Notes: generated by a model from the letters alone, not told the origin. Shown: positions 12,517-50,089, numbered from the stretch's first letter. The stretch is DNA of 64,000 bases from Waterburya sp. (GCA_965217895.1 CBDCJV010000002.1:1952001-2016000); one strand, 5' to 3'. A program made the numbers and translations.

Positions 12517-13284
12517 ATGACTGAGAACAAAAGAAAAATCGCGCTGGTAACGGGAGCGAGCAGAGGACTAGGCAAAAATACGGCTTTGGCACTGGCGAAA
12601 AAAGGGATTGATGTCATCGTGACCTATCACAGCAACGAAGCAGAAGCTAATAACGTTGTCTCTGCAATTGAAGCAAATGGCGGACAGGCGATCGCGCTAC
12701 AGCTAGATACGTCTGACACAAAAACCTTTGATGGGTTTGCAGCACAAATCAAGCGATCGCTTCAGGAAACATGGCAGACAGAACAGTTTGATTTTCTGAT
12801 TAATAATGCGGGAATTGGAATTAACAAACCCTTTGCAGAAACAACCGAAGCAGACTTTGATCGCTTGATGAATATCCAGCTTAAGGGCGTTTTCTTCCTA
12901 ACGCAGAAACTTCTGACTGTGATAAAAAATGGCGGACGCATCATTAATATTTCATCAGGGCTAGCTCGATTTACACTACCAGGATATTCTGCATACGCAA
13001 CCATGAAGGGAGGAATAGAGGTATTAACCCGTTACATGGCAAAGGAACTGGGAGAAAGACAGATTACCGTCAATGTAGTTGCTCCAGGGGCAATTGAAAC
13101 AGATTTCGGTGGAGGCGCAGTGCGTGACAATTCAGAAATTAACGACTTTATTGCTTCACAAACAGCCTTGGGTCGCGTCGGTGTTCCCGATGATATCGGT
13201 GGTGCGATCGCCTCTTTACTTTCTGAAGATAACCGCTGGGTAAATGCCCAGAGAATTGAAATTTCTGGCGGTACGTTCCTTTAG
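12517..13284 (+). CDS. Short-chain dehydrogenase/reductase
   Basis: TGASRGLG, NNAG, YATMK. Confidence 0.93.
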   Translation: MTENKRKIALVTGASRGLGKNTALALAKKGIDVIVTYHSNEAEANNVVSAIEANGGQAIALQLDTSDTKTFDGFAAQIKRSLQETWQTEQFDFLINNAGIGINKPFAETTEADFDRLMNIQLKGVFFLTQKLLTVIKNGGRIINISSGLARFTLPGYSAYATMKGGIEVLTRYMAKELGERQITVNVVAPGAIETDFGGGAVRDNSEINDFIASQTALGRVGVPDDIGGAIASLLSEDNRWVNAQRIEISGGTFL

Positions 13285-13359
13285 ATCTCAGCCTTAGCTA
13301 AACAGAACAAGAAATAAATTTATAAGGTCACTGTCACTAAAAAATAAGAGGTCATTAAA

Positions 13360-14379
13360 ATGCCAAATCCTTCAAATACCGCAGCCTGGCAGCCAGAACC
13401 AGGCGTTGCACTAGAGATTAAACCAGCCCCATACACTTCACCAGGCGAGCATGAGATTGTTGTCAGGAATCTCGCGATCGCCGTCAATCCCGTCGATTGG
13501 ATTATCCAAGACCAGGCTATGTTCGACTGGCTTAAATATTCGCTCATTCTTGGCAGCGACGTGGCGGGTGAAGTCGTAGAGATCGGCAAGGGCGTATCCC
13601 GCTTCAAACCGGGCGATCGCGTACTCGCTCAAGCAACTGGCGGGTTGAGAAACGAGCCTGCCAGGAGCGCCTTTCAACAATACACAGTTATTGCTGAAAA
13701 TATGGCAGCGCATATCCCAGACCCCATTGACTACGCCAACGCTGCTGTTCTGCCACTGGGTCTTGGGACTGCATCATGCGGTCTGTTCGAGAAAGACCAG
13801 TTGGCACTTCAATATCCTTCGGTGCCGCCCAAACCAACAGGCAAGGCACTGCTCATTTGGGGAGGATCTTCGAGCGTTGGTTGCAATGGTATTCAGCTTG
13901 CCGTGGCAGCCGGGTACGAAGTTATTAGCACCGCCTCGCCGAAGAATTTTGATTTGCTCAAGCGATTGGGGGCTAGCCATGTATGCGACTACAATAGCGA
14001 GAATATTGTCGAAGAACTGGTTCAAGTATTGAAAGGTAAAACGATAGCTGGCGCACTTCATACTGTTGGAGATTTGGAAAAATGCTTTGCCGTCGTTGAC
14101 CGCTGTTCGGGACGAAAATTTGTCTCTATGACTTCGCCACTACCCGAAAGCAAACCTGCTAACGTCGATGCCAAGCAAATTTTTGGCGATACGCTCAAGG
14201 ACAACGAGGTCAGTCGAGCGGTCTATGTAGATTTCCTTGGCAACGCTCTCAGCGACGGTGTCTATGTTCTCGCGCCTGAGCCTTGGGTCGTCGGGACTGG
14301 TCTTGAGTCTCTTCAAAAGGGTCTGGAAGTTCAGAAGCAAGGTGTGTCGGCAAAGAAAGTGGTCATCACACTCGAATAA
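13360..14379 (+). CDS. MDR-family (zinc-binding ADH/enoyl-reductase-like) oxidoreductase
   Basis: AVNPVDW, ILGSDVAGEV, WGGSSSVG; visibly more GC-rich than flanks. Confidence 0.9.
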   Translation: MPNPSNTAAWQPEPGVALEIKPAPYTSPGEHEIVVRNLAIAVNPVDWIIQDQAMFDWLKYSLILGSDVAGEVVEIGKGVSRFKPGDRVLAQATGGLRNEPARSAFQQYTVIAENMAAHIPDPIDYANAAVLPLGLGTASCGLFEKDQLALQYPSVPPKPTGKALLIWGGSSSVGCNGIQLAVAAGYEVISTASPKNFDLLKRLGASHVCDYNSENIVEELVQVLKGKTIAGALHTVGDLEKCFAVVDRCSGRKFVSMTSPLPESKPANVDAKQIFGDTLKDNEVSRAVYVDFLGNALSDGVYVLAPEPWVVGTGLESLQKGLEVQKQGVSAKKVVITLE

Positions 14380-14399
14380 TCTCAAATATATGCGATCGC

Positions 14400-14572
14400 T
14401 TCTTAAACGGCGCGGATGCGCCAGCGTCCCTGAAAGGGACTTTGCACCCAAAGGGTGCTGTGTCGCTTCACCCTCGACAATAGCTTTAACGGGTCGCAGA
14501 CCCGCAACGCTTTGTCTGGCAAGTCGAGATGCGGACAAGTCCTTTGGTCGCATCTGACCCGCCCAACGCCCT
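14400..14572. repeat. GC-rich composite of small hairpin repeats
   Basis: GTCCCT-gaa-AGGGAC, GCACCC-aaa-GGGTGC, CGGGTC-gca-GACCCG, AGATGCG...CGCATCT; starts right after HIP1 14392-14399. Confidence 0.7.
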
Positions 14573-14652
14573 GCATCGCCTTTTTACTTTCTGAAGACAA
14601 CCTCTGGGTAAATGCCCAAAGAACTGAAATTTTTGGCGGTCAGTCTATTTAA
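14573..14652 (+). pseudogene. Orphan duplicate of the 3' end of SDR 12517..13284
   Basis: Aligns to 13204-13284 (IAFLLSEDNLWVNAQRTEIFGG vs IASLLSEDNRWVNAQRIEISGG). Confidence 0.9.
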
Positions 14653-14685
14653 TTCAAATCAATTAAAACAATAAGGAAAATTACT

Positions 14686-15420
14686 ATGTTAAACGTAGAA
14701 AACAAAGTGATTGCTATCACAGGAGCTAGCAGTGGTATTGGCGAAGCTACCGCCAAACTGCTCGCCCAAAATGGTGCCAAGGTAATTCTGGGCGCGCGGC
14801 GCACCGAAAAGCTAGCCAAGATTGTTGAGGCGATCGGTAGTCAAGGCGGTATAGCGGAATTTAAAGCAGTAGATGTCACCAATCGCCAAGATGTAACAGC
14901 GTTCGTTCACTTTGCCAAAGACAAGTTTGGTCGCGTCGATGTCATCTTTAACAATGCAGGGGTAATGCCTTTGTCGCCGATGAATGCCTTGAAAGTCGAA
15001 GAATGGGACAACACAGTCAACGTGAACATCAACGGCGTATTGAACGGGATTGCAGCGGGTTTGCCAATTATGGAGGCGCAAGGTGGCGGACACTTTATTA
15101 ATACCGCCTCAATTGGCGCACATTTAGTATCACCCACCGCTGCGGTCTATTGTGCAACCAAGTATGCCGTTTGGGCAATTTCTGAGGGTCTACGTCAGGA
15201 GTCAAAAAATATTCGCGTGACTACTATATCTCCTGGAGTGGTTGAAACCGAACTCGGCTCTGAAATTACGGACGATTCAGCCAAAGGCTTTTTGCAAGAG
15301 TTACGCAAAACTGCACTAACTCCAGACGCGATCGCCTGTGCTGTCTTATATGCCGTGTCTCAGTCAGATGATGTGGATGTTAATGAAGTGATTGTTCGTC
15401 CAACGGCGAGTGCATATTAA
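14686..15420 (+). CDS. Short-chain dehydrogenase/reductase (YdfG-like)
   Basis: TGASSGIG, NNAG, YCATK. Confidence 0.93.
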   Translation: MLNVENKVIAITGASSGIGEATAKLLAQNGAKVILGARRTEKLAKIVEAIGSQGGIAEFKAVDVTNRQDVTAFVHFAKDKFGRVDVIFNNAGVMPLSPMNALKVEEWDNTVNVNINGVLNGIAAGLPIMEAQGGGHFINTASIGAHLVSPTAAVYCATKYAVWAISEGLRQESKNIRVTTISPGVVETELGSEITDDSAKGFLQELRKTALTPDAIACAVLYAVSQSDDVDVNEVIVRPTASAY

Positions 15421-15581
15421 TTATTAGAAGAAAGTACTTGAGTTTGACGCTCATTCTAAAACAGAGACGATTCTATTACTATCGTCAATTTGATTGAAAG
15501 CAGAGATGTTTTTAAGCAGGTTTAAAGTTATTCATGGCTTGTATATCTGGACAAACAAAGCAAGGTTTAATCAAGAAAACA

Positions 15582-16397
15582 TTAACTTAAAGATAATTCC
15601 AGCGAAGGAAGTGCTTTAGCTGAAATAAAATTTTGCTCAATTAATATCTGATAAAGATCGATCTCGGTTTCCAGAAGGCACGCATGACCACTTTGAGGTA
15701 ATATTGCCATTTTTGCTTTGGGCATCATGTTAACTAGTTTTTTAGCTTCTGCCACCGAAGGCAACAAGCCATCGGCTGCACCAGCAAGAATCAGGCTAGG
15801 AATTTTTAAACTACCTAACTCCTCATCAGCGATTTTAAAATCTCTAAGCAGAGATAAACGCCAGCTAATTACCTGGGGTGGCAAAGATTTCATACTTTCT
15901 ACTAAGCTAAGGCGATCGCATTCATTAATTCGATTTAGTTGCGCTAAAAAAGGTAATAGTCCCGCAGCCGAGTAGCGATGTATCCAGGTAGGTAGCCAAG
16001 GAGCAATATCCGCGCCTAAACCTAAAATAGGTAGCTGGTTAGAAGAGGAAGCGGGGTTGACTAAAACTAGTTTTTTAATCAATGATGGTGCAGCCAAAGC
16101 TGTTTTTAGTGCTAAACAACCACCAAAAGATTCACCACACAGATATACTTCTTTATTTGTCTTACAGTCTAATTCAGATCTAATCAGCTTTACCGTATCC
16201 CTAGCTAAATCTTGCCAGTTACTGTAGTTATCGCTCCGAATCTTCAGACAACGCAAATCAAAACGAGCCGCTAATTTATCCGCCTGATTCTGAAATAGCT
16301 TACCTGTACCGTCCATTCCAGGCAAGTAAACAAACAAAGGAGCATCTCGGTTAACTTTTCTTGCCTCTATAAAATCTACGCTATATTCAAAACTCAT
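15582..16397 (-). CDS. Alpha/beta hydrolase resembling the hydrolase half of plant ELT/PES acyltransferases
   Basis: LPGMDGTG, GESFGG nucleophile elbow, NPASS, SGHACLLE. Confidence 0.85.
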   Translation of the reverse strand: MSFEYSVDFIEARKVNRDAPLFVYLPGMDGTGKLFQNQADKLAARFDLRCLKIRSDNYSNWQDLARDTVKLIRSELDCKTNKEVYLCGESFGGCLALKTALAAPSLIKKLVLVNPASSSNQLPILGLGADIAPWLPTWIHRYSAAGLLPFLAQLNRINECDRLSLVESMKSLPPQVISWRLSLLRDFKIADEELGSLKIPSLILAGAADGLLPSVAEAKKLVNMMPKAKMAILPQSGHACLLETEIDLYQILIEQNFISAKALPSLELSLS

Positions 16398-16573
16398 AAA
16401 TAATAAATAAAATAAATATGTAAATCGAAAAACTTAAAACTTAAAATTACTTCATATACACTATTGTACTATTGTTTTATATTCCTCTTCAAAGATAAAT
16501 TTATTTACACTTTTCTTTATATTGTGTTCACAGCAAATAATGAAGGGTTTACTTCTTACTCCTTACTTCTTAC

Positions 16574-17302
16574 TCACCCTTTATAAGTCCCTTCTTGTAA
16601 TAACTCTGTGATCTGATTCTGGCAATAGTTAGTTAAGTCTGTAGCGAGTATTTTTGCCTGTTTACCCTTATACTCCTGTTTTTGTGCCGTATTTATCAAG
16701 TAAGGACGACCGATCAATACTTTAACGCGGTGGTAAACCAACATTGGATGTAACCCCTGGTGTTCAAAAAATGGTTCTTGGCGATCGAATTGTTTAAGCC
16801 AACTAATAGGAATACTGGGATAATTTGTTTCTGATAAAGAAGCGATCGCCACTGGTAAAACAGCTAAATTATTAACAGGAACTCTCCAGGCTAGATGAGC
16901 AAAACCACGCTGAAATTCGCCCATTTCATAGGGTGCGGTAGGCTCGATCATTGGTTTAGTACCTTCAGGAAATAAACCAACCCACTGTCTAGAAGCAAGA
17001 AGATTGCTTGCTTGGGCAAAAAACTGCTTTTGTCTTTGATTAGCCTCAGCCAAGGGAAAGCAGCCTAAAGAATCAACAATTTCTTTGACTACTGGAATTT
17101 CTCCCATGTAATGATGACAGGCAATTCTTAAAGAATAAGGAATTGTTTTAATCAGAATTGGCGCATCTAAAAAACTACGGTGGTTGCTGATAACAATAGT
17201 CGGAATATCTTGGGGAATGCGATCGCCATAAGATAGAGTCAAATTTAGATTAACTGCCGATATCAAAGACTGAGCGATTAAACGAGGTGGAATAGATGGC
17301 AT
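16574..17302 (-). CDS. PlsC-like lysophospholipid acyltransferase
   Basis: SNHRSFLD (HX4D), LFPEG. Confidence 0.88.
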   Translation of the reverse strand: MPSIPPRLIAQSLISAVNLNLTLSYGDRIPQDIPTIVISNHRSFLDAPILIKTIPYSLRIACHHYMGEIPVVKEIVDSLGCFPLAEANQRQKQFFAQASNLLASRQWVGLFPEGTKPMIEPTAPYEMGEFQRGFAHLAWRVPVNNLAVLPVAIASLSETNYPSIPISWLKQFDRQEPFFEHQGLHPMLVYHRVKVLIGRPYLINTAQKQEYKGKQAKILATDLTNYCQNQITELLQEGTYKG

Positions 17303-17753
17303 TTAACGAGATTATTGGCTGATCTGAAACAAAATAAACAATACCTTGATGTTGTTGCCAGTTTAGGCTTATCTATAGTATGAAGCACTATTCAACAATT
17401 AACAAAGGTTTTGTGTTTTCTCGATTTATAGAAATTATATTGAAGCTGCAATGATTAATTGAAGGTTAATACAGTTTTTTAATCACTTTGCTAACGAAGT
17501 CGAAAAATTATTAAGTATTTTCTTCAACCCCAAGTTAACCAACATTTTGCAATTGATACTATTTATGTATAGTTCTTATAATTTATTTAAACCAAACTAA
17601 AGTCCTTCAATCTATTAAAATAATTGTTTTAGAGAAGTTTAAAAGTTAGATTAAGGCGTATTGAACATCAATTTTGGCTATATTGCTTTTAAACCTTAAG
17701 GGCTATTAAACATATATCCTTTTGGTTTGGGCAAAACGATCGCTCTTTTTTAA

Positions 17754-19346: not shown

Positions 19347-19652
19347 ATTAAGACGAGTAATTTAGCACAGTATTTTTTTACTGGTATAAGGTTACTTACA
19401 TAAACAACAAGCAACCGTGACACTATCGTTGATATTTAAGCCTATCTAGATTAACAAATACTATAGATAGAAAATTGATTATTTACTTTAACGCTCAACT
19501 GTAGACCGCACAAGGCGGTCAAAAATTTAAAAGCTCGATCTCAACTTATAAAACTAGAATACTCGGTTTGGCTGTTTTATACGGTCAGTAATTATAGGGT
19601 TAATCCACCCAAATAGAAAAACTTTTTTGTATAAAAAACGAGGCTTAATAAA

Positions 19653-30061: not shown

Positions 30062-30325
30062 TATAGCGTTTCTCGTATTAACGAGGTACACCTTAGTTTT
30101 GACTGGAGACTAGTTCTTTCCTAATCCCCGATCCCTAATCCCTAAAAGCAATCAATTCTGTATCTTATTAGTGGCGTTGCTGAATGTGTAATGCTAAAAG
30201 TATATTTAGCTTATTTATTAAGTAGTGATGATTTATTCAAAGCTTAGAGCTTACAGCTACGAACAGTCATCTTTTGTATGACATTATTTAATCAGCAACG
30301 CCTTATTAGTTTGAGAACCGCTATA
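30062..30325. mobile_element. Outer MITE (TATAGCG.. ends) carrying a nested MITE
   Basis: Left end TATAGCGTTTCTC..GAGGTACA; right end TGTATC[TTATTAGT]TTGAGAACCGCTATA after removing the inner element. Confidence 0.75.
30173..30302. mobile_element. 130-bp MITE with 8-bp target duplication
   Basis: TIR GGCGTTGCTGA/TCAGCAACGCC flanked by TTATTAGT at 30165-30172 and 30303-30310. Confidence 0.88.
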
Positions 30326-33920: not shown

Positions 33921-34003
33921 ATTAAGTAAATCTATGGACATGACCTTTCATTGAACATTAAGCATTTAACATTTCATGAGAAGTAGGTAATTAGTAATCA
34001 AAA

Positions 34004-34034
34004 ACTACAAACTACGAACTACGAACTACGAACT
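34004..34034. repeat. Heptamer tandem repeat (AACTACR x4)
   Basis: aactaca aactacg aactacg aactacg; region flanked by direct repeat TTCATTGAACATT. Confidence 0.75.
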
Positions 34035-34065
34035 TCATTGAACATTCAAATATCTGATAAATGAA

Positions 34066-34692
34066 ATGACTGTTAAGCAACCTGTAAATGCTCTAATTTA
34101 CGTCGAAAACATATATGAGGGAGAATTATCTAAAAATAGTTTAAAAGCTGTTGAATCTATTCCCTGGGACGACTGGATTAAAGTTTGGCTTGACTTACTT
34201 GGGTCTATAAGTAATTTAAATCAAGACTGCGAAATAGGCTTGAGATTAACTGGCGATCGCCAAATTCAGGCTCTTAACCGTCAGTATCGCTCAATTGACC
34301 AACCTACAGATGTTTTGGCATTTGCAGCTACAGAAGCAAATGTTCCTCTACCACAGGATATTGCTGAACCTCTTTATTTAGGAGATGTTATTATTTCACT
34401 TGATACGGCTGAAAAACAAGCGCAGGAGCAAAACCATTTATTAACAACAGAGTTGGCTTGGTTGGCTAGTCATGGTGTGTTACACCTGCTAGGTTGGGAT
34501 CATCCTGATGAGGTTAGCCTAGAAAAAATGTTAAAGCAACAGTCTAAACTGGTTCAATTGTCAACGATACACCGCCGTAGAAGCGACGAGACCCCGCGTC
34601 GGCGTAAGACGCAAGGGAATGCTCGTCAAGACACGACGGTGCCTGCGTTGACCGCCTTGCGCGGTCAAAAGTTTCGCAAAGCTAGTGAGTAA
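34066..34692 (+). CDS. ybeY: rRNA maturation RNase YbeY with repeat-derived tail
   Basis: PTDVLAF, LGDVIIS, HGVLHLLGWDH. Confidence 0.95.
   Translation: MTVKQPVNALIYVENIYEGELSKNSLKAVESIPWDDWIKVWLDLLGSISNLNQDCEIGLRLTGDRQIQALNRQYRSIDQPTDVLAFAATEANVPLPQDIAEPLYLGDVIISLDTAEKQAQEQNHLLTTELAWLASHGVLHLLGWDHPDEVSLEKMLKQQSKLVQLSTIHRRRSDETPRRRKTQGNARQDTTVPALTALRGQKFRKASE
34570..34670. repeat. GC-rich palindromic repeat composite inside ybeY 3' end
   Basis: CACCGCCGT...ACGACGGTG stem; TTGACCGC-cttgc-GCGGTCAA hairpin also seen inverted at about 19505. Confidence 0.7.
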
Positions 34693-36920: not shown

Positions 36921-37003
36921 ATAGGGACGTTTCGTGAGGTAGTGTGGTCTTGGGGGTTTCTCTGATGAACAACTATCGAACCCGAAGGGCGAAACGCCCC
37001 TAC
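36921..37003. repeat. GTAG-type REP-like palindrome with a second repeat nested in its loop
   Basis: TAGGGACGTTTCG / CGAAACGCCCCTAC arms enclosing GTCTTGGGGGTTTC..AACCCGAAGGG. Confidence 0.7.
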
Positions 37004-37020
37004 AACGAAATATGATGCAA

Positions 37021-37641
37021 TTAATTTTTTTCGGCTTTTGGCTCAATGCCTTGGTCAAGCTGCCAGGCGATCGCATTAAGAACTAAACTACCATTGCCTG
37101 TACAACTCTCTTGGTATTCTTCCTGTGCTGCGACAACAGAGCCTAATTTCTCGATGGTTTTACCGTACTTCTTGTCTTTAGCTAGTTCTTTTTCTTCGGC
37201 GGTCAAAGGACGCGATCGCTCTAAAACAACTTTGATAATCGGTATATACTGCTCTGCCTGTTCTGATGCTTCTTGCACCTCTAATTGCAGCTTAGTAAGT
37301 TCAATAATTTCTTTTGCTCCCTGAACAATGGGCAATAATTCTTGACTATCTGACACGGTTTGAGTTGATTTTACTGGGGGACTAACCGATGGTACATAAA
37401 AAATGTGGTCTGGTGTTAAACCATCAGGAAAACGATTGACATCAATCTCTTCTTTTTCCCACATTTCTTGCACAATCTCCAAAGCTTTGGCACGATTTTT
37501 TTGGGTATCTCCTGTTGTACTAGACACCTCTACCAAAATTCCTTCTTGCTCTTCAACTGGTTTAGAAAGATCGCTAACTGCGACAAAATGAGAAACTGCT
37601 GCGGTTTTTGCCATCTTTAAGAAAGATTTAAATTTTTTCAA
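37021..37641 (-). CDS. Hypothetical protein
   Basis: 206-aa ORF with natural composition; likely start ATG 37614 (MAKTAA). Confidence 0.7.
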   Translation of the reverse strand: MKKFKSFLKMAKTAAVSHFVAVSDLSKPVEEQEGILVEVSSTTGDTQKNRAKALEIVQEMWEKEEIDVNRFPDGLTPDHIFYVPSVSPPVKSTQTVSDSQELLPIVQGAKEIIELTKLQLEVQEASEQAEQYIPIIKVVLERSRPLTAEEKELAKDKKYGKTIEKLGSVVAAQEEYQESCTGNGSLVLNAIAWQLDQGIEPKAEKN

Positions 37642-37649
37642 TATTATTG

Positions 37650-38385
37650 TAATATCATAATTATTATCGCCGTTAAGAGCAACAACTCAATAAAAGTTGC
37701 CTCTTGTATCAAATCTCATTCAACCCCAAATACAATTTTAATTCATGCCCAAAATGGTATTCCCTACTGTTGGTTTAATAGCGATAATTACCTCTCGATC
37801 CTTAACAAAAACCTGTTTGACAAATTAAGCTTCTATCGTTATTTAAATACTGTTGATAGTAATGGTGTTTTAGAGAAAAATTTGCGCGATCGCACTATAG
37901 TAGGATGTGTAGTTAAAGCTCCTTGTCAACAAACAAAAGAGGGAAAAATTCAAGTTAAAAAACCGCCTCGATTAATTTTGGGTTTGACCAAAAGCGATAG
38001 TCACAATTTAAAACAGCAGGCTGTAGTTCAACGCCTATGTGATTTATTTTCTCAACATGGTATAGCTGCTACCTACACTGATAAGATACGCGCTGCCGTG
38101 TGCGACAAGCTAGCCATTAATATAGCCACCAATGTTCTTTCAGCTTTGACTGGCAGAGTAATTGCCGATTTAACCGCAAACTACTATACCAACAGTCTAA
38201 TTAAAACTATTATTGCCGAGTTTAATCATGTTTTTTGCTGTTACGGCATCAAGCCAGAAGATTTGCCCACCGAACAAGCAATTTGTTCATATATCAAAGC
38301 CCCAAGCAGCCAAAGTCATCTACCTTCTCTCGCCCAAGATTTTTCTCAACACAAACCTGGAGAAATAAGTTCAATTACCGCTGAC
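37650..38385 (+). pseudogene. Ketopantoate reductase (ApbA/PanE) family fragment
   Basis: Open frame IIIAVKS..TILIHAQNGIPY..IVGCVV..KLAIN..PSLAQD..GE; no N-terminal GxGxxG, C-terminus cut; ends approximate. Confidence 0.7.
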
Positions 38386-38643
38386 GCTTGCTCCTTCTCT
38401 AAGAATTACACCACCACCCAAAAAACCAACTCCTGAAACTATTTGAGCAGGAATTCTCGTGGGGGTGGCATCTCCTGGAGTCATTATCGAAAGCATGACA
38501 AACATTGCTGATCCTAAAGTTACCAGCACATTTGTTTTTAAAATTGCTCTAGTTTTAAGCCATTGTCTTTCAATACCGATACCTACAGCTAGGAAAAATC
38601 CTACTAACAAACGAAGGGCAAAAGTCGTCCACGTAATGATCAT
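38371..38643 (-). pseudogene. Truncated MgtC/SapB family gene
   Basis: GIGIERQW, TRIPAQIVSGVGFLGGGVILREGASV then stop; lacks GLNTAA and C-terminal half. Confidence 0.85.
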
Positions 38644-38798
38644 ATTAATATTCTCTGTAGACTGAAGGTTTAAGTAATTTAGACAGAATTATTTCGTAAA
38701 AATAGCTTTGATAAACCAACACATAAAAACACGCTAAGTTTAATACAAGATTAAGGCTCAACTCTAACCGATGTTAATCAATAATTTGCACAAAAAGT

Positions 38799-42485: not shown

Positions 42486-42723
42486 TGAATACCCTCACGC
42501 TAAATAAAGAAATATAGAATACACTACTAAAAAATTCAAATATATATATACAAATATTAATCGATCAATGGTAACAGGTATTTGCTATAAAAAAAACTTG
42601 TTACAGGATTGCCTTTAATTAGTTACCCAATTTTATTTGACCCACTACTTATACTATTTTAGAAAACCTTTTTGGTTTCAGCTTCCTCATTAGGGTAACG
42701 ATAGTTTAGATAAGTGGCAATTT

Positions 42724-43119
42724 TCAGGATTTATTTTCTAAAAATAGGGCTGAATTCATTTTCTTGATTTCAGCCGTTGGGGACAAGCTTTTTTTACCAA
42801 GACTAGCCATTAACAAAGTACAGGTTACAAAATATCCCGTAGTCAGAATGGCGTTGGCATAAAGCAAGCGAAAGGACACGAGATCTACAGCATTAGCTGC
42901 ACCCAAAGAGAGTAAAGAATAAGAACCTAACCAAACTAAAATTAAAGAAATAGCTAAACGGCTAACTTTTTGTTGTTCACGATCTACTGTGCTTTGTATC
43001 TGGTTTTGAGGGTGGTACATAGTCCAAAGAGCAGGAATTACCCCCACAATAGGTAACAAATAAATCCACAGTTTGAGATGTCGCTCTATTTGTCCTGGGG
43101 AACGATGTGGATGATTCAT
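42724..43119 (-). CDS. Hypothetical membrane protein
   Basis: Start set at ATG 43119 to avoid overlapping mobA; YLLPIVGVIPALW, three TM segments. Confidence 0.7.
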   Translation of the reverse strand: MNHPHRSPGQIERHLKLWIYLLPIVGVIPALWTMYHPQNQIQSTVDREQQKVSRLAISLILVWLGSYSLLSLGAANAVDLVSFRLLYANAILTTGYFVTCTLLMASLGKKSLSPTAEIKKMNSALFLENKS

Positions 43120-43150
43120 AATTGTTTTTCCATATATAAATCTAAATCTG

Positions 43151-43762
43151 GTGAAAAGATCGATCAAAGACAAGATTACAGCACTTGTTTTGGCTGGAGG
43201 CGAAAGTTCTCGTATGGGACAAGATAAAGCCTTGTTAGCCATTAAAAACAAAACTTTGCTGTCTCAAATTTGTTTAACTGCTAGTGAATGCGTTGCTCAA
43301 GTTTATGTAGTCACACCCTGGATTGAAAAATACCAGGAAATTTTACCTCCAGACTGTCAGCTAATTGAGGAAAAGCTAGTTTTAAATGCTAAATCCAACA
43401 CGCCTTTGATTGGCTTTGCACAAGGATTAAAGATAGTTAATACAAAATGGGTATTGTTATTAGCTTGTGACCTGCCTCAGTTGTCTTCGTCTCAAGTAAA
43501 ACAGTGGTCGCAAATTTTGGCAACAGTATTACCCACAGAAATTGCTTTGTTACCCCGTCATCCTAAAGGTTGGGAGCCTTTGTGTGGTTTTTATCGTTCT
43601 AGTTGCTTGTCGTTGTTAGAATCTTATCTATACGATGGTGGTCAATCTTTTCAAGACTGGCTTAATAAGTACCCTGTCAGAGAATTATCGACTAGCGATC
43701 GCGCTTGTTTATTTAACTGTAACACTCCTGATGACTGGAAATTGTTCCAAGAAAAGAAATAA
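43151..43762 (+). CDS. mobA: Molybdenum cofactor guanylyltransferase
   Basis: VLAGGESSRMGQDKA, ACDLP, EPL, FNCNTPDD. Confidence 0.95.
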   Translation: MKRSIKDKITALVLAGGESSRMGQDKALLAIKNKTLLSQICLTASECVAQVYVVTPWIEKYQEILPPDCQLIEEKLVLNAKSNTPLIGFAQGLKIVNTKWVLLLACDLPQLSSSQVKQWSQILATVLPTEIALLPRHPKGWEPLCGFYRSSCLSLLESYLYDGGQSFQDWLNKYPVRELSTSDRACLFNCNTPDDWKLFQEKK

Positions 43763-43824
43763 AAGCAAATTTTTTTTGACACAGATTACTATGGGTTTCT
43801 AACTAGATGTGGTTTAGTATCACT

Positions 43825-44138
43825 CTAAAGCTGAACAAAATTGGTACACTTTTTATTGCTTTGGAGTGGTTCAGCGCAGGCTCGAATTTCGATATCTTTA
43901 CCTGAAGCCATGTCTGCATAATGTCTTTGCTACTGATCTACAGGAACAACAGCCGTACCATATTTCTTTCCTTGGCATTCTTCAATATAGTGACTTGAAC
44001 CAGGAGGAGCTTCAGTTCTTGCCCAAGTAGCCTGACAAATTGGCGAGTAACGAATTTCTAATCTATAAGCTTTAAGTAGATCTGGCTTAAGCTGATAGTT
44101 GCCAGTATCTGAGGTGATAGTTTGAGAAATGCGATCGC
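43825..44138 (-). pseudogene. DUF2690-like 3' fragment starting at a HIP1 site
   Basis: DRISQTITS..LEIRYSPICQATWART..VDQ*Q..RACA..KCTNFVQL*; internal stop, no 5' part. Confidence 0.7.
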
Positions 44139-44208
44139 CGATATTTTTCTTAACTGAAAGATGACCAAGGTAATCAAAGCTAGCAAGCAGACCAATTTAA
44201 AATCAATT

Positions 44209-44757
44209 TTAGTCGAATAATAAATACCAAGATTCTCTGGTAAGTTGCCACTCAATTTGATTCCAGCCGCGATCGCTCATCCAATCTGGACTAGGGCGTG
44301 TGCCAATTTTAATAAAACCATATCGCTTTGCCAAACGCGCAACCCGCAAATTTGCACTGACAGAAATACCTCTAATCTCTTTTAAACCCAGATCGTTAAA
44401 ACCAAACTCAATTAAAGCTTTGCCAACTTCAATTGCATAAGCGTAACGACTCCAAAACTGCGGTGCTAATTCAATTCCCATTTCCGCCTTATGCGAATCG
44501 TAATTCTCGCGACGTAGCCCACAACAACCGATTAAATTTAAGTTTCGGCGATCGATAATAGCAAGTTGATAATTGCAACGGGGACTTTCAGTTGCCCATT
44601 GAGTAAAAAGATTGAGTAATTCTCCTGTATGGCTAGGTGATACCTCTTCTGGCGCACAAAACTCAGCATATTTGGGATCGCCATGATAGGCAAAAAATGC
44701 TGATTCATCTTTTTGGATAAAGTCTCGTAGAAGAAATCTATTGGTAAAAATCTCCAT
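44209..44757 (-). CDS. GNAT (RimJ/RimL-type) acetyltransferase
   Basis: TNRFLLRDF, LIGCCGL, AEMGIELAPQFW. Confidence 0.88.
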   Translation of the reverse strand: MEIFTNRFLLRDFIQKDESAFFAYHGDPKYAEFCAPEEVSPSHTGELLNLFTQWATESPRCNYQLAIIDRRNLNLIGCCGLRRENYDSHKAEMGIELAPQFWSRYAYAIEVGKALIEFGFNDLGLKEIRGISVSANLRVARLAKRYGFIKIGTRPSPDWMSDRGWNQIEWQLTRESWYLLFD

Positions 44758-44776
44758 ATCATTTTCAAGTAAAAAC

Positions 44777-45268
44777 TTAAGCTAAACGGAAAGCGATCGC
44801 AAATGCTGTTGTTGCTCCAAATGCTGCTATTGTGCGAACATGATTCCAAAGTGTCCAGTTCGTTAGGTATTTAGCCCATAAACTTGCGCCTTCAGCACTA
44901 CTCGGATCGACTTTTGCTAAAGCATCGTTTAACGGTACATTAAAGGCGATCGTTACTCCAACAGTACCAACGATATAAAGTAAGCTGCCAACGAGTAAGT
45001 AGATTGAATTTGGTTGATGAAACTTTAACAGAGAAAAAACAGCTAGAAAAAGGCAAACTACAGCCGTACCAAACAATGCGGTCATAAACAAGGGATTAAT
45101 TACAGTAATGTTAATAGACTGCATGGCAACAATACCCTCTGAAGGTTTTAGTCGAGCAAGAGCTTTCATCACAAAAGACGAGAAAGCAAAAAAAACTCCA
45201 GCCACTAGTCCAGTTCCCAGTATGGCAAAAAGCTGTAATAACAAAAATGATTTATTATTTATCAGCAT
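44777..45268 (-). CDS. DUF1772 / anthrone-oxygenase-like membrane protein
   Basis: AGVFFAFS.FVM.AL, MQSIN, NVPLND, WNHVRT; start reassigned to ATG 45268. Confidence 0.88.
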   Translation of the reverse strand: MLINNKSFLLLQLFAILGTGLVAGVFFAFSSFVMKALARLKPSEGIVAMQSINITVINPLFMTALFGTAVVCLFLAVFSLLKFHQPNSIYLLVGSLLYIVGTVGVTIAFNVPLNDALAKVDPSSAEGASLWAKYLTNWTLWNHVRTIAAFGATTAFAIAFRLA

Positions 45269-45351
45269 ATAAATCTCCGATGATTGTGCTAATTCATTTT
45301 TAGATAATTTAGCAGTGAGAAAGGCAATCGGGTAAATTAAGAAATTAGAGG

Positions 45352-45470
45352 TTATTGGGTTGTTGCCTCGGATTCCATATAAATAATTTCCCAAATATGA
45401 CCATCTAAGTCTTGAAAACCATGAGCATACATAAAACTGTGGTCTTGCGGTTCATTGTAAGTTTTCATCT
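45352..45470 (-). pseudogene. C-terminal fragment of VOC/glyoxalase-family gene
   Basis: TYNEPQDHSFMYAHGFQDLDGHIWEIIYME..*. Confidence 0.75.
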
Positions 45471-45474
45471 ACTG

Positions 45475-45857
45475 ACCGTATTAAAGCCGTAGGAGATTGA
45501 TGCTTTTACTGCTTGGGTTGCAATTCCTCTTCCCCAATATGCTTTTGCTAAACTGTAAAGAACTTCAACTTCATCTAACTTATTTAAATAACGCAGACCA
45601 CAATAGCCAATCATTTGAAGTAAATCATCTTTTGTAATAGCCCAAATTCCATATTCTCGCTGTTGCCAATGCTCAACAAAAGATTGAAGCGATTTTTCGA
45701 CATTTTCTCTAGAAATTGGGACTCCTCAACTTGGAAGAAAACGAGTTACTTCAGGATTGCCCCAAATTGCTGTCAGAGCATCCAAATCTAATAGCTGAAT
45801 TGGTCGCATTATAAAACCGTCAATCTGCAAAACTGTTGGCTCGGCAAGATTTGTCAT
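45475..45857 (-). pseudogene. GNAT acetyltransferase pseudogene
   Basis: Frameshift and TGA near 5' end; IGYCGLRYL..EVEVLY.LAKAYWGRGIAT; truncated. Confidence 0.8.
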
Positions 45858-45964
45858 TACAATATTTTCAACTACTCTATTGTTTGTTTATAGGGCAAAT
45901 TAAACCAACATTATCGATTATTTTTCTGCATTTCTTAAGTACTTGTGGCAAAAAACCAGATTCT

Positions 45965-47347
45965 CTATTTAATTAATAAGGTAAACCAAAAAGTTGTTCC
46001 CGAACCTGGATTACTAATTACGCCGATTTCTCCACCATGAGCGTTAATAATTTGACGACAAAGATATAATCCCAATCCTAAATTTACATTACATCGCTTA
46101 CCGTATCCTTGAAAGTACCGTTTAAATAGCTGTTGGCATTGTTGGAAACTCATACCAACGCCGTCATCTTGAATTTGGCAACGGATGAATTTTTGCTCAC
46201 CTTTATTCTCGATCGCTTCAGCACTAATAGTTAAATTGACTCCTGGAGGATTATGATTTAAAGCATTAGCAATCAAGTTTTGTAAGACTCGCCATAGCTG
46301 ATGTGGATCGCCTTGAATTAGGGGTAGCTCGTCGCTAATATAGTTAGTAATCGCAGCTCGATTTTTGCTAATTAATGGTTCTAATTCGGTAATAAGATCG
46401 GCGACTAAATAACTTAGTTGCAGTGACTCAAGCTTGATCGCAAATCCCTGTACTTTATTTCCATAAATTTCTAGAAGAGAATCGATTAAGTTTAATTGGC
46501 GATCGCTTCCTTGAATCATTCTTTCAATCACACGGCGCGGTACGGGTACTAGATCGGATTCTGGTTGAGCATGGCGATGATTTTCCAATAAACTATTCAG
46601 CGTTAACACCATTCCCGTAACTGGATTGCGTAGATCGTGGGAAACGGCGTGTAAAAAAAGCTGAATTTCACGACGAGATTCTAATTCAGCAGATTTGAGA
46701 CGTTCGTATAAATATACTCCCAGATTACAAATCAGACAAATCCAAGCAATATAAATAGGAACTGTGGGTAAATAAGATAAGGTTCTGGCTTCAACCAAGC
46801 CCATTCCTATGTTAACTACAAAAAAGTAAATTAATACTCCTAATTGAGAGAGTAAATGTAGTCGCCAGCGCACGGGAATAAAAATTGCCTGAGTTAAAAA
46901 TACTAAAGTCCAAAACCAAACTTGTTCGTTAGCTGCGCCTACTAAAGTAAGTAAAATTTGGTCAACCAAAGTAATCGACCAAGAAGTGCCGATAAAAACT
47001 ACTCCTGGATGATTTTTGCCGAATTTACTGCGATGCAAAGCCAAACACCCGATTAAGCAAATGGCGATCGCAGCTTCGATAACTAAATTGTAGCTTTCGC
47101 AAAGTTCCGAACCATTAGTACATTCGCGAATACTTAAACTCAAAAGCGCGAAACTTGCCACACAAAACAAAGCAATCCCAATGACTAAGGGCAATCTTTG
47201 ATATAGAAAATAGTTACGCCAGGTTTGCTCGTCTAAACTAAGATCGTTTTCTATAATTAAATCAGACGAAAAAATCGTTGTATTCAAAAGAATCTGAATT
47301 TTTTTGGCAAACCTTTTTTTGGCTCTTAGTAAACTGACTATAGGCAT
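45965..47347 (-). CDS. Membrane sensor histidine kinase
   Basis: About 6 TM segments, SHDLRNP H-box, NLIANA, DDGVG, GLGL. Confidence 0.93.
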   Translation of the reverse strand: MPIVSLLRAKKRFAKKIQILLNTTIFSSDLIIENDLSLDEQTWRNYFLYQRLPLVIGIALFCVASFALLSLSIRECTNGSELCESYNLVIEAAIAICLIGCLALHRSKFGKNHPGVVFIGTSWSITLVDQILLTLVGAANEQVWFWTLVFLTQAIFIPVRWRLHLLSQLGVLIYFFVVNIGMGLVEARTLSYLPTVPIYIAWICLICNLGVYLYERLKSAELESRREIQLFLHAVSHDLRNPVTGMVLTLNSLLENHRHAQPESDLVPVPRRVIERMIQGSDRQLNLIDSLLEIYGNKVQGFAIKLESLQLSYLVADLITELEPLISKNRAAITNYISDELPLIQGDPHQLWRVLQNLIANALNHNPPGVNLTISAEAIENKGEQKFIRCQIQDDGVGMSFQQCQQLFKRYFQGYGKRCNVNLGLGLYLCRQIINAHGGEIGVISNPGSGTTFWFTLLIK

Positions 47348-47386
47348 AAAAAAGTTTTAATTCACATTGTTATGAGCGATCGCTTA

Positions 47387-47635
47387 TCACGCTACCATCA
47401 TGCCATTTTTCCAAAGCTCATACTCACTCAGATCGATATCTTCATTCCACACAATCCCGTAGCCCCCTTGCTCAACCTTAAAGTTTTTGAAAAATGCAGG
47501 TTGACGAAGTGGAGCAAATATGGGATTTTCTAAAAGATGGAAAATATCACATTTCTTGACTTCTTGATTGGTAAATTTAATCACTAAGGTGCGATCGTTA
47601 ATTGCTTCTGCCTTGCAAATTCGAGGGCATTTCAT
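47387..47635 (-). CDS. DUF2442-family protein (orphan antitoxin-like)
   Basis: LVIKFTN..FAPL..F..F.VE.GGYGIVWNEDIDLSEYELW; no DUF4160 partner adjacent. Confidence 0.85.
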   Translation of the reverse strand: MKCPRICKAEAINDRTLVIKFTNQEVKKCDIFHLLENPIFAPLRQPAFFKNFKVEQGGYGIVWNEDIDLSEYELWKNGMMVA

Positions 47636-47682
47636 ACTATTTTTAGTCTACTTTTCTGCATTGTAGTAAGAGATAGGGTTTG

Positions 47683-48237
47683 TCAAGTGCGATCGCCATT
47701 TTCAGGTATTTCAACTAAGACAGAAAGCACCAGCGCAGCCAACCCCATAATCTTAATAATGGCATTTGTGGCATGGGTATATTCCCATTGGTTACGATAT
47801 TTCATCCAATCCACTGGAAATGATGTTGGTGTCCATTTAGCTAGTTCGGCATTGACAGGTGCGATAAACGCGAACCAAAGCATGAGTGCCAGTACCACAC
47901 AAATTGCTCCTACTAAAGTCCAATAGAAAGTTACACCACGTCTAAATAAAAGTAAAACCAAAACAATCGCCGTGAGTACCGAGCCAACTTCAATAACTGC
48001 ACCAACAGTACCAAAAAGATAATATAAACCTTTAGTAGTTATTGTTATCCAAAGTTGCGCGTCAAAATAAAAAACTCTGGGTGGTAGCTCTAATAAATGG
48101 CAAAAAGACAATCCCGTACTGAGAGCAGTCAGCATAATAGAGACAAAACGCCATGCTTTTATCGGCATATTTACGCTCTTTTCTTTAAGATACATTTGAT
48201 TTCTCTCCAGCCGTCGAACTTTTAAAAAGCTTGACAC
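47683..48237 (-). CDS. DUF1772-like membrane protein
   Basis: HLLELP, PVN..W..P.DW..YRNQWEYTH; true start may be at MPIKAW. Confidence 0.75.
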   Translation of the reverse strand: MSSFLKVRRLERNQMYLKEKSVNMPIKAWRFVSIMLTALSTGLSFCHLLELPPRVFYFDAQLWITITTKGLYYLFGTVGAVIEVGSVLTAIVLVLLLFRRGVTFYWTLVGAICVVLALMLWFAFIAPVNAELAKWTPTSFPVDWMKYRNQWEYTHATNAIIKIMGLAALVLSVLVEIPENGDRT

Positions 48238-48245
48238 AAATCAAA

Positions 48246-48923
48246 TTATGGCTTAAATCCCCAACAGGCATAGCTAGTTGCCCTAGCTAATCCAAGCGGA
48301 AATTGCTGAAAGCGAATATCTTTTAAACCAGCATCAGTCATTATTTCAGCTAAATCTTTTTGAGTAAGACAATTATTGCCCCAGTGTAATTGGACACAGG
48401 AGCTTAATAACCCCCAACGGCTGACTGACAAAATTAGTGGAGCTTGAGGTTTAAGTATTCTGACCATTTCCTTTAGTCCGACTATTGGTTCTGGTAAATG
48501 CTCCAAAACATGAGCAGCAATGACAAGATCGAAGCTGTTATCTGCAACAGGAATTGCTATTAAATTAGCGCGAGTTATTCGAGCCTTGATTCGAGCCTGT
48601 TGCAGATTTTGTTGTGCCGTTAGCAGCATTTGCGGAGAAATATCGACCCCAGTAACATTTAACCGACTCTGAATTTGTGCTAAAGCCAAGCTAAAAGCTG
48701 CTGTGCCAATACCACAATCGCAGACAGTTGAATTTCCTCCCAGCTTTATTACGCCCGATGCTTGAAGCGACTCAAACAAGCTAAGATAAGCACGAAAATA
48801 TCCCAATCGTAGAATTTGATGATGCCAGTTGCGAGCAGCGTCATCGTACATAGATTTTATCTGGTCGTAAGTCGGATAAACTCGCTGAACCGAAATTTGC
48901 CACCAGCCAACTGTGAGTTTCAT
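48246..48923 (-). CDS. Class I SAM-dependent methyltransferase
   Basis: DCGIGT, GVDISPQML, FDLV..HVLEH, RILKP. Confidence 0.9.
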   Translation of the reverse strand: MKLTVGWWQISVQRVYPTYDQIKSMYDDAARNWHHQILRLGYFRAYLSLFESLQASGVIKLGGNSTVCDCGIGTAAFSLALAQIQSRLNVTGVDISPQMLLTAQQNLQQARIKARITRANLIAIPVADNSFDLVIAAHVLEHLPEPIVGLKEMVRILKPQAPLILSVSRWGLLSSCVQLHWGNNCLTQKDLAEIMTDAGLKDIRFQQFPLGLARATSYACWGFKP

Positions 48924-48998
48924 AAAATTAATCTGATGTAACCTCGAACTGTCTTAAAATTACACCAAGCAGCAAAGAGCGCACTTCCTGCGACTGGC

Positions 48999-49014
48999 TC
49001 ACTCGATTGGGTGA
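48999..49014. promoter_or_regulatory. Possible NarL/LuxR-type operator upstream of methyltransferase
   Basis: 16-bp imperfect palindrome TCACTCGA-TTGGGTGA between response regulator and methyltransferase. Confidence 0.3.
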
Positions 49015-49046
49015 TATTAATTAAATTGAGCTAGATGGAATAATAA

Positions 49047-49703
49047 CTATAGCAGCCCCGACCTCAGAGCGATTACAGCAGCTTGAACGCGATCGCTCAC
49101 AGCTAGTTTATTCATTACTCCCTTAACGTGAGTTTTCACGGTGTTAGTACTTAAATAAAGTTGAGCAGCAATTTCAGGGTTGCTACAGCCTTCGACAATC
49201 AGTTTTAATACTTCTAGTTCTCGCGAAGATAAGTTAGCACTGCTCGATGTCTGCGGTGATGGCGATTTAAGATTACCCATTACTTGTTGGGCAATTTGCG
49301 GATCGAGATAAACCCCTCCATCTTGGGCAATGGCGATCGCTGTTAATAATCGCTCTACTTTGACTCCTTTGATACAGTAAGCATCTGCACCACTAGCAAG
49401 AGCAGCGATTACTTCGGTTTTATTGGTATGAGAAGTTAGTATTACTACCCGAACCTTAGGCAAAGCTTTTTTAATCTCTTGGGTAACGGCTATGCCATCG
49501 AGGCGAGGTAAGCCAATATCGACGATCGCTAAATCGGGCTGAAACTTAATTGCATCTTCTACAGCTAAATAGCCGTCATCACTAAATCCTACTATCTCCC
49601 ACTCGGATTTTTTTGCTAGAATTTGTTCCAATCCCATTTGCATCATCGGATCGTCTTCAACAATTAAGACCCTTAGTTTGGAAGAATTAGATTGAAGATT
49701 CAT
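49047..49703 (-). CDS. NarL/LuxR-family response regulator
   Basis: REC (VEDD, D, T, K) plus LSSRELEVL..TVKTHV HTH. Confidence 0.95.
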   Translation of the reverse strand: MNLQSNSSKLRVLIVEDDPMMQMGLEQILAKKSEWEIVGFSDDGYLAVEDAIKFQPDLAIVDIGLPRLDGIAVTQEIKKALPKVRVVILTSHTNKTEVIAALASGADAYCIKGVKVERLLTAIAIAQDGGVYLDPQIAQQVMGNLKSPSPQTSSSANLSSRELEVLKLIVEGCSNPEIAAQLYLSTNTVKTHVKGVMNKLAVSDRVQAAVIALRSGLL

Positions 49704-49723
49704 CTTAATTTTGCCTCACCTAC

Positions 49724-49949
49724 CTACCGAGTTTGAAAGATATTCTTTCTGTATCATTGGCTTGTCTATTCGGGCTGCTGCACGATCTAATTCTGCTACT
49801 TCTCTTGCGTCTAGTTGCCAGTCTTTAGCAGCAATATTTTCTTGCGTTTGTTGAATATTCTTTGCTCCAGGAATGAGAATTGCACCTTTAGCGATGCACC
49901 AGTTGATAGCTACTTAAGACATAGTTTTCTGGCGGTATAAAGCGATCGC
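49724..49949 (-). pseudogene. Aldo/keto reductase 3' fragment starting at a HIP1 site
   Basis: AIA..QKTMS*VAINWCIAKGAILIPGAKN..ENI..WQLD..ELDRAAA..(fs)NIFQTR*. Confidence 0.85.
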
Positions 49950-50021
49950 CTGTATTCTCAAACTAGAGTAATGCGTAGCGTTGCCATGTCTTAAGTTTAT
50001 CGCTTTTTGCTGAGATGTAGC

Positions 50022-50089
50022 GCGATCGCGCTTGTTTATTTAACTGCAATACTCCTGATGACTGGCAAATGTTTAGACAAAAGGATTGA
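50022..50089 (+). pseudogene. Orphan duplicate of mobA 3' end starting at a HIP1 site
   Basis: 57/68 nt identical to 43695-43762; DRACLFNCNTPDDWQMFRQKD*. Confidence 0.92.

Follow-up and report, generated by a model that had tools for sequence, protein, structure and literature searches.

The function of HIP1 has been a question for thirty years. Some integrative elements, those of the attL/attR island type, restore the 3' end of their target gene. The earlier evidence for a role of HIP1 in recombination comes, in the available parts of the sources, from a handful of deletions and plasmid fusions made in the laboratory and from yields of transformation (PMC13756078, PMC4390886, PMC9239245; bioRxiv 2024.09.10.611283). 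HIP1-to-HIP1 joints are described there for the smtB deletion (Gupta 1993) and for an excision (Robinson 1997) in Synechococcus, and plasmid recombination at HIP1 for PCC 7002 (Akiyama 1998) (PMC13756078, PMC4390886, PMC9239245). In PCC 7002 a homologous HIP1 at the end of the homology arm raises integration 7- to ~100-fold (bioRxiv 2024.09.10.611283). SDR5 and other small repeats are cited as targeting HIP1 (Elhai 2008, via PMC4390886, PMC5861425). Homology-facilitated illegitimate recombination (HFIR) is listed for S. pneumoniae, A. baylyi and P. stutzeri, and in the same excerpt the 109-950 bp target duplications of E. coli are ascribed to recircularised donors and not to one-arm integration (PMC3240628).

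The window, by which we mean the whole stretch of 64,000 bases that was analysed, contains 84 HIP1 sites, or one per 762 bases, in keeping with the spacing of about one per 750 bp claimed by the first-pass annotation; its contig, C2, contains 5,824 (one per 894). All five junctions which that annotation had placed at HIP1 are confirmed as real (Table 1). The 3' end of the mobA-like gene is indeed duplicated 6.3 kb downstream, starting at HIP1: the copies measure 62 nt, are 87% alike and lie 6,327 nt apart. Four relatives (G017, G045, G049 and G050, ~91% identical) have mobA immediately next to the rodA side and align with the right copy from exactly HIP1 50022 on. Against G017, 10 of 40 nt match before this position and 55 of 62 after it. 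The relatives show that the block was gained in a way that left the host gene whole. Run contigs, probably from the source sample, span 43601-44256 and 45729-48026 without difference; only 5-10% of the words were present in runs X1-X11. Within the block, the stretch 44200-45239 has a 92% copy at C2:795190-796229, four homologues of the 184-aa ORF were found, and no source of the 72-nt piece turned up in this genome or the loci collected for comparison.

Table 1. Features at the HIP1 junctions of the window (strand: +, -, or. where none applies)
Position	Strand	Feature	Remark
12517..13284	+	SDR gene	HIP1 13204 in tail
13360..14399	+	Zinc-type dehydrogenase (ADH), 13360-14379, then junction HIP1	junction HIP1 at 14392-14399
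14400..14574	.	Small, partly multi-copy piece, HIP1 14392 to SDR tail	absent in G050
14575..14651	+	Stranded SDR tail	
43151..43762	+	mobA-like gene (PF12804)	intact host gene with new tail
43695..43756	+	Repeat copy 1, HIP1 and mobA 3' end	62 nt
43757..50021	.	Lineage-gained block	absent at this site in G017, G045, G049, G050
43825..44138	-	DUF2690-family 3' remnant	homology from HIP1 44131-44138
44209..44757	-	GNAT acetyltransferase (PF13302)	
44777..45268	-	Anthrone-oxygenase family gene (PF08592)	
45470..45857 (approximate)	-	Broken GNAT-like gene, internal stop	family by eye; end not at HIP1
45965..47347	-	Histidine kinase	
47376..47696	-	HIP1 47689, module-native upstream DNA, DUF2442 gene (47387-47635), HIP1 47376	
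47683..48237	-	184-aa ORF without Pfam match	last codons through HIP1 47689
48246..49703	-	Methyltransferase (48246-48923) and LuxR-type response regulator (49047-49703)	
49725..49949	-	Decayed tail of 325-aa gene	begins at HIP1 49942-49949
49950..50021	.	72-nt piece flanked by HIP1 on either side	
50022..50083	+	Repeat copy 2, stranded mobA tail from HIP1	continuous with ancestral DNA before rodA
50196..51500	+	rodA/ftsW-family gene	mobA's ancestral neighbour

Two partial genes inside the block had been read as orphan tails starting at HIP1, and both match a full gene only from HIP1 on. For the tail near the right end, the full counterpart is a 325-aa gene at C2:1808084-1809061 (92%), and the match ends one base past HIP1; the first-pass annotation labels it an aldo-keto reductase, a family name that we take as putative. 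The homology of the DUF2690 remnant to a whole 196-aa DUF2690 gene of G008 stops at 44138, as it does in five of the seven genus genomes with a match, although with an identity of 72% the edge is not as sharp. Because the whole genes do not adjoin them, cut ends of donor pieces would be a more fitting reading of both tails than leftover resident tails.

The DUF2442 gene (PF10387) does lie between two HIP1 sites, at 47376 and 47689. These are 313 nt apart in the window, whereas G017 has one HIP1 at which the resident flanks join, as they also do in run X1, which may come from an organism already represented among the relatives; both cassette ends are HIP1 sites native to the module. None of 38 other genus genomes carries the HIP1-plus-upstream DNA of the piece; four distant genomes do, with three different outer flanks, none like the window's, and with a protein up to 93% identical. 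The piece is foreign.

At the SDR gene, the duplication of the 3' end (13207-13283 / 14575-14651) and its HIP1 junction stand, but the junction is not the degenerate HIP1 at 14573 that had been named. G050 has the ADH end fused straight to the SDR tail where HIP1 14392 lies, its own octamer carrying one mismatch, which rules out the degenerate site; G049 and the window have a piece of ~180 nt in between, with ATCGC on both sides. The junction is therefore HIP1 14392, and GCATCGC at 14573 is the far edge of the piece, which resembles HIP1-targeting small repeats of the SDR5 class and shares their high copy number in part. None of the four relatives yielded an empty site for the ADH gene. Two window breakpoints noted at first as lying off HIP1 do so, near 38381 and 45462, at distances of 488 and 662 nt.

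The coincidence of breakpoints with HIP1 far exceeds chance across the genome. Both copies end at HIP1 in 19 of the 75 low-copy local repeats (1.1 expected, p 2e-18); by cluster the count is 16/44, or 13/44 when the first pair per cluster is counted (p 6e-14). As a control, 60 common octamers gave 0.36 per equal number of sites. All 19 have at most three copies even at a lenient threshold, 13 of them overlap a gene of at least 100 aa, and the repeats flank gene-sized cargo; the HIP1 joints are mostly paired with a homologous gene end of 40-170 nt. Among 35 hand-listed window junctions, which include the first-pass picks, six lie within 3 nt of HIP1, where 0.3 are expected. Diverged GAF repeats were also seen to end near HIP1.

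The joints fall within the octamer, between unrelated flanks. Inside the repeats identity is 24.75/30, and this ~83% drops to random at the octamer edge; outside it the copies match at 10.75/40, as compared with 10.5 for random HIP1 pairs, so that homology does not run on past HIP1. The bases shared beyond the octamer at 34 junctions number zero (n=23), one (n=10) or two (n=1). This is best fitted by random HIP1 pairs, a twofold gain per extra base being worse by 5.2 log-likelihood units, so longer pairing is not favoured. A 7/8 match to HIP1 in one or both copies is seen in two pairs only, and a comparison of any CGATCG with full HIP1 is confounded by later mutation. We find no elevated divergence around HIP1 in general beyond 5 nt.

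Some new genes were spliced in exactly at HIP1, a genuine route of gene gain but one taken in a minority of cases. Just 18 of 1,207 alignment-block ends against the relatives (1.5%) fall at HIP1, and among clean indels 4/7 of those with a repeat of at least 30 nt end at HIP1 but only 1/55 of those without a long repeat. The low shares of 18/1,207 and 1/55, and 13 of 24 stranded gene ends with no HIP1 in either copy, speak against HIP1 as the usual entry for accessory DNA, and the 1.5% share calls for caution in naming HIP1 joining as HIP1's function. In the distant cyanobacteria we took 160 loci around DUF2442 and mobA homologues, two of which were dropped as near-identical to the clade of the present genome. 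Among 152 HIP1-rich loci, 16/91 repeat pairs end at HIP1, in 11 loci, against ~5.9 one-copy ends expected and with copy number unfiltered; by set, these are 15/73 for DUF2442 and 1/22 for mobA. Locus L324, from a distant genus and the one case checked, was rejected as a replicate: its 'tail' proved to be a dispersed repeat bounded by HIP1, and in G118 the gene ends with no such tail. In tiles of the four relatives 5/29 pairs scored as HIP1-ended, three of them in one array; as the relatives are kin, these pairs are not independent.

Five of the 19 are insertions, with empty sites in relatives, at the tails of mobA and of genes of 464, 474 and 330 aa and at one gene head. The host gene is intact each time, the five hosts are different and the cargo unrelated. 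The homologous gene end measures 62-174 nt, and the resident end is duplicated with nothing lost, as seen by a repeat screen that is blind to deleting events. Four further repeat loci (C2:2375900, 3378100, 4100900 and 2764700) gave no clean empty site in relatives.

In the explanation that we tentatively favour, with a probability of roughly 45%, HIP1-to-HIP1 crossovers close donor DNA into circles that re-enter the chromosome at a HIP1, mostly a homologous one. Two HIP1 sites with unrelated flanks would recombine inside the octamer through host recombination or repair, without an element-borne integrase. The donor DNA would stem from other cyanobacteria and probably have been acquired through natural transformation; ComEC is present in 13/13 genus genomes, which indicates the capacity only. 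The circle would close between an in-gene HIP1 and a HIP1 past the neighbouring cargo and re-enter through a single crossover, at the resident gene's homologous HIP1 or just past it, leaving the gene whole, the cargo next to it and the old end stranded behind HIP1, as at mobA. A circle without a homologous arm would enter any HIP1 and end up between two, and it thereby accounts in one step for the DUF2442 cassette, which needs two HIP1 joints without an arm. Several observations count against the circle. In one event the HIP1 used is not the one nearest to the end of the homology. As many as 13/24 stranded gene ends have HIP1 in neither copy. Under a general preference for GC-rich octamers, 14-60% of joints would likewise fall at HIP1, and conjugal editing in Nostoc punctiforme is described, in the part of that report available, as gaining no help from HIP1 (bioRxiv 2026.07.31.742098). 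The donor order mobA-DUF2690 which the circle predicts occurs in 0/38 genus genomes. Neither a circle nor an intermediate was observed, and the X12/X13 contigs, which cannot show rare forms, contain no circle and no excised DNA.

The same end product would result from one-arm linear integration, the model of the first-pass annotation, in which homology lies in the host gene and the far end is joined from a donor HIP1 to a resident HIP1 within the arm, so that the tail is duplicated; we consider this unlikely, though not far-fetched. A circle should bring no donor DNA upstream of HIP1, so private changes there count weakly against it and for the linear route. Within 70 nt upstream of HIP1 they are somewhat concentrated in two to three of four testable events: mobA (6/18, p 0.04), the 464-aa gene (4/7, p 0.005) and, as a borderline case, the 330-aa gene (p 0.056), with no such concentration in the head event (p 0.42); 10 mismatches are reached by 8% of HIP1-flanking 60-mers anyway. 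At the 330-aa gene, the stranded copy resembles G050/G045 at 94-95% and the in-gene copy at 85-86%, which makes the in-gene tail look foreign; the two copies at mobA, and likewise those at two other events, do not clearly differ in their closeness to the relatives. HFIR employs microhomologies of 3-10 bp but, as excerpted, its general outcome is loss of resident DNA and not duplication (PMC3240628), and the linear route leaves the arm-less DUF2442 cassette and the 72-nt HIP1-to-HIP1 piece unexplained.

HIP1 may instead mark deletions: DNA would enter by ordinary homologous recombination and leave a long duplication, a later HIP1-to-HIP1 deletion would trim the second copy, and the tails would be scars. 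A HIP1-bounded smtB deletion of 352 bp is reported in the available text (PMC13756078), the instability of long repeats fits the single low-copy local repeat above 600 nt, and G010 holds a 113-nt DUF2442 3' piece between two HIP1 sites. This history takes two steps for each event, or three in the case of DUF2442, both of whose cassette-end HIP1 sites are module-native, and we rate it as rather improbable; still, judged from sequence, integration and deletion are not fully separable.

'Integrase-free' holds for the window, where no integrase or transposase was found in 58 scanned of 75 ORFs of at least 80 aa, but the genome elsewhere has 10 PF00589 (tyrosine-recombinase) matches. Toxin-antitoxin arrays with HIP1-rich spacers were listed as well, one holding a Y1_Tnp-like ORF. 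A tyrosine recombinase or an IS200-like/REP transposase encoded elsewhere could move HIP1-bounded cassettes in trans, for which these matches, that ORF and the HIP1-bounded dispersed repeats flanking such modules in Pseudanabaena might be quoted; with no conserved arm sequence past the octamer, unrelated hosts and cargo, and all 19 repeats at three copies or fewer, we find this quite improbable. That alignments merely stop at a conserved HIP1 (88% conserved in alignments, with the GAF repeats ending nearby) or that the repeats are assembly errors is very improbable and already largely refuted by the fall in identity at the octamer, copies that differ by 5-21%, run contigs that cross 43601-44256 and 45729-48026 unchanged and the empty sites in four relatives.

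Of the 'HIP1 integration system' first proposed, the coincidence, the sharp edges and the mobA gain with a whole host gene remain, but a dedicated system is not supported. A wider reading, which we find doubtful, is that cyanobacteria encode an activity of their own, possibly directed by CGATCG methylation, which cuts and rejoins DNA specifically at HIP1, so that thousands of sites would serve for attachment, cassettes would cross genera HIP1-to-HIP1 without an integrase, and HIP1 would be kept partly for this reason. A 435-aa C5 methylase (C2:276321-277625) has a match in 35/41 genomes of the order and, judging from this spread, may be the CGATCG methylase DmtC. A gene end duplicated from HIP1 on, with an empty site in relatives, is a countable natural footprint and a testable clue to HIP1's role. 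If the joining is sequence-specific, cyanobacterial engineering could use it for integration with one arm or none, and toxin-antitoxin and other small genes could pass between genera by this route.

Among known systems, HFIR shares the one-sided homology (absent for DUF2442), the short microhomology opposite, here the 8-bp HIP1 and thus within 3-10 bp, and the lack of an element enzyme; it differs, as excerpted, in deleting resident DNA with varied 3-10 bp joints, whereas here there is duplication without resident deletion, one dominant octamer and no gain from longer pairing. With attL/attR islands the events share an intact host gene, cargo and a stranded old gene end (the 62-nt mobA repeat), but the block carries no integrase, the target is not fixed and the cargo is unrelated from site to site. 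SDR5-type repeats, as far as described, are similar in their precise events at HIP1; unlike these and REP-like repeats, the 19 are low-copy, many copies being approached in part in the Pseudanabaena case. The PCC 7002 enhancer work of Kamoku and Nielsen likewise finds that HIP1 at a homology edge favours integration, but with two homology arms only and with non-homologous HIP1 joints unmapped (bioRxiv 2024.09.10.611283). We found no report in the literature of HIP1-to-HIP1 recombination at natural gene-gain junctions. Laboratory HIP1-to-HIP1 recombination, in the accounts available, has the crossover within the octamer, unrelated flanks and no integrase named, just as here; those cases are deletions and plasmid fusions, whereas the present ones are natural chromosomal gene gains, counted genome-wide.

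The 6,327-nt difference at mobA is a gain, because mobA is joined directly to the DNA preceding rodA in four relatives of the same genus used for comparison (G017, G045, G049 and G050; ~91% identity), as it also is in the more distant G009, G010 and G018. The first-pass annotation had claimed that the mobA 3' end is duplicated from HIP1, the very common 8-bp palindrome of cyanobacteria. The right-hand copy indeed starts exactly at such a site and continues into ancestral DNA, and the 40 nt preceding it match G017 at 10 of 40 positions. The HIP1 starts proposed for the aldo-keto reductase and DUF2690-like tails also held up, and on sequence grounds the block can be read as three pieces jointed at HIP1 44131, 49942 and 50022, with a DUF2442 cassette nested within. 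Since contigs of sequencing run X12 cross 43601-44256 and 45729-48026 with zero differences, joints within these intervals are not assembly errors. X12 is probably the source sample of the window genome (G000), and the X12/X13 sample apparently also contains a second, related strain.

The DUF2442 gene does lie between two HIP1, at 47376 and 47689 (313 nt apart); G017 has a single HIP1 instead, and a contig of run X1 likewise lacks this piece. HIP1 47689 and the DNA following it, present in four distant genomes and in none of 38 other genomes of the genus, are native to a DUF4160-DUF2442 module whose outer flank differs from context to context. In the DUF2442 family HIP1 stands at or near the 3' end, 5 nt beyond the matched part in eight of the 20 closest loci examined. 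Two Komarekiella genomes (L254, L255) have, at the same locus, the full pair in one and no DUF4160 in the other. In Pseudanabaena (L324, L420, L421, L428) a dispersed repeat of ~40-nt HIP1-bounded units adjoins such modules; in L324 it is the end of a monooxygenase gene. For the SDR tail the HIP1 junction is real but had been misplaced at 14573: in G050 the ADH end runs straight into this tail where the window has HIP1 14392, and in the window and G049 a later-arrived, partly multi-copy piece separates the two.

The suspicion that HIP1 coincides with breakpoints beyond chance was borne out across this HIP1-rich genome (39% GC; 84 HIP1 in the window and 5,824 on the 5.2-Mb contig C2). Self-BLAST yielded 196 direct local repeats (35-600 nt), or 75 once multi-copy ones were removed, and in 19 of the 75 both copies carry HIP1 at the same end, where 1.1 would be expected given how often HIP1 is conserved in alignments of orthologues (p 2e-18). 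HIP1-ended repeats make up 16 of 44 clusters, or 13 of 44 with the first pair per cluster, and 60 common octamers used as a control gave 0.36 per equal number of sites. Inside the repeats identity is 24.75/30, and outside it is 10.75/40, no different from random HIP1 pairs. None of the 19 exceeds three copies at a lenient threshold, and 13 overlap an ORF of at least 100 aa. Where a gene end is paired with a non-coding copy (n=24), eight pairs have HIP1 in both copies and 11 have it in at least one. For five events the site is empty in relatives; their cargo measures 635-6,327 nt, a gene tail is duplicated in four and a gene head in one, and the host gene is intact in all five. Among the cargo genes one is HicB-like, and by eye others resemble toxin-antitoxin parts. 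Taken over all HIP1 on C2, GC skew is +0.055 across the preceding 20 nt and -0.062 across the following 20 nt, and it fades to below 0.01 at more than 100 nt from the site.

The coincidence of junctions with HIP1 is confirmed and holds genome-wide in G000, as a minority route and not as a demonstrated integration system of the kind that had been proposed. Breakpoints are enriched at HIP1 at the exact edge of alignment blocks with relatives, where the peak is sharp (17 against 3.9 expected, p 9e-7), but just 18 of 1,207 distinct block ends (1.5%; 2.1 Mb of tiles from the relatives) show HIP1 on either side of the comparison. Clean indels of at least 250 nt number 62; four of the seven with a long repeat lie at HIP1, versus one of the 55 without. 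Smaller indels are mostly pieces of 60-300 nt whose overlaps are short and AT-rich. In a screen meant to replicate the finding in distant genera, the sole case checked was a dispersed repeat. The integrase-free status holds for the window only, because G000 has 10 tyrosine-recombinase matches.

Features in and around the window (window coordinates unless a contig is named)
Position	Feature	Observation
14400-14574	Small, partly multi-copy piece in HIP1 14392	ATCGC on each side; variant in G049, absent from G050
30064-30323, 33949-34062, 34565-34663, 36923-37048	Small intergenic pieces, several multi-copy	Missing from relatives; 2-5 nt overlaps, away from HIP1
37655-38790	Ketopantoate-reductase C-terminal fragment adjoining MgtC fragment at 38381	Looks like a deletion, because the matches lie ~4.4 kb apart on one strand in G008 and G010; nearest HIP1 488 nt away
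42800-43751	Runs X12 and X13	Other letters in about half of depth, many common to X1 and X2
44131	DUF2690-like remnant	Match to whole G008 gene ends at this HIP1
47636-47688	Cassette without DUF4160	Upstream DNA fused to DUF2442
49942	Aldo-keto reductase tail	Matches whole gene elsewhere in G000 as far as one base beyond HIP1
50022	Right-hand mobA-end copy	Starts at HIP1
57970-58806	Pair of GAF-domain repeats, 537 nt apart, in a 1,092-aa protein	100% identical over 300 nt, other copies 66-76% alike; recent duplication or conversion
60488-60550	Tandem array	9-nt unit
G010:C16:177447-177567	113-nt DUF2442 3' fragment (L165)	90% like window; two flanking HIP1, unrelated context
C2:1453200-1453745	337-aa tyrosine recombinase, 1.7 kb from insertion at C2:1450031	Looks resident, because a 339-aa match sits at the G017 empty site
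C2:2375900-2386800 (L171)	Small toxin-antitoxin gene array (BrnT, HicA, PemK and Gp49-like across L171 and L174), HIP1-dense spacers	29 HIP1 in ~10 kb; gene order different in relatives
C2:3516000-3526300 (L174)	Second array of this kind, HIP1-dense spacers; also Y1_Tnp-like ORF and partial second copy	21 HIP1 in ~10 kb; gene order different in relatives

The joint is the octamer and nothing longer: with ends called within 3 nt, which limits the range, shared bases beyond it number 0 in 23, 1 in 10 and 2 in 1 of 34 junctions, like random HIP1 pairs. Plain length-dependent annealing is disfavoured by this lack of extension, and a twofold gain per extra shared base fits 5.2 log-likelihood units less well. 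Of all identical octamer pairs 3.8% are HIP1, and among GC-rich ones its share is 14-60%, so the joints may also reflect a general preference for GC-rich octamers, such as homology-facilitated illegitimate recombination (HFIR) shows.

For the mobA anatomy we favour, with a probability of roughly 0.45, a donor circle closed at HIP1 that would enter the chromosome by one crossover. This one step would also explain the arm-less DUF2442 cassette, and, according to PMC3240628, E. coli duplications of this size came from recircularised donors and HFIR generally deletes resident DNA. In two or three of four events private changes lie upstream of HIP1, which points weakly to a linear donor with one homologous arm and a HIP1 joint; that route is less likely, as is a long duplication later trimmed by HIP1 deletion. 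Both ComEC and a C5 methylase are present; the methylase is widely conserved and may be DmtC.

In titles, abstracts and passages, with subscription literature thinly covered, we found no report counting HIP1 at natural gene-gain junctions and no description of the stranded-end anatomy, in which the old gene end is left beyond the cargo. The gained blocks are not members of the integrase islands, and one feature of HFIR failed here. HIP1 is known to raise two-arm integration (bioRxiv 2024.09.10.611283). The junctions behave as HIP1-to-HIP1 recombination combined with short homology would; in Synechococcus such recombination is known from deletion and from plasmids (Gupta 1993, Robinson 1997, Akiyama 1998, via PMC13756078, PMC4390886 and PMC9239245), whereas here the joints lie at natural gene gains.
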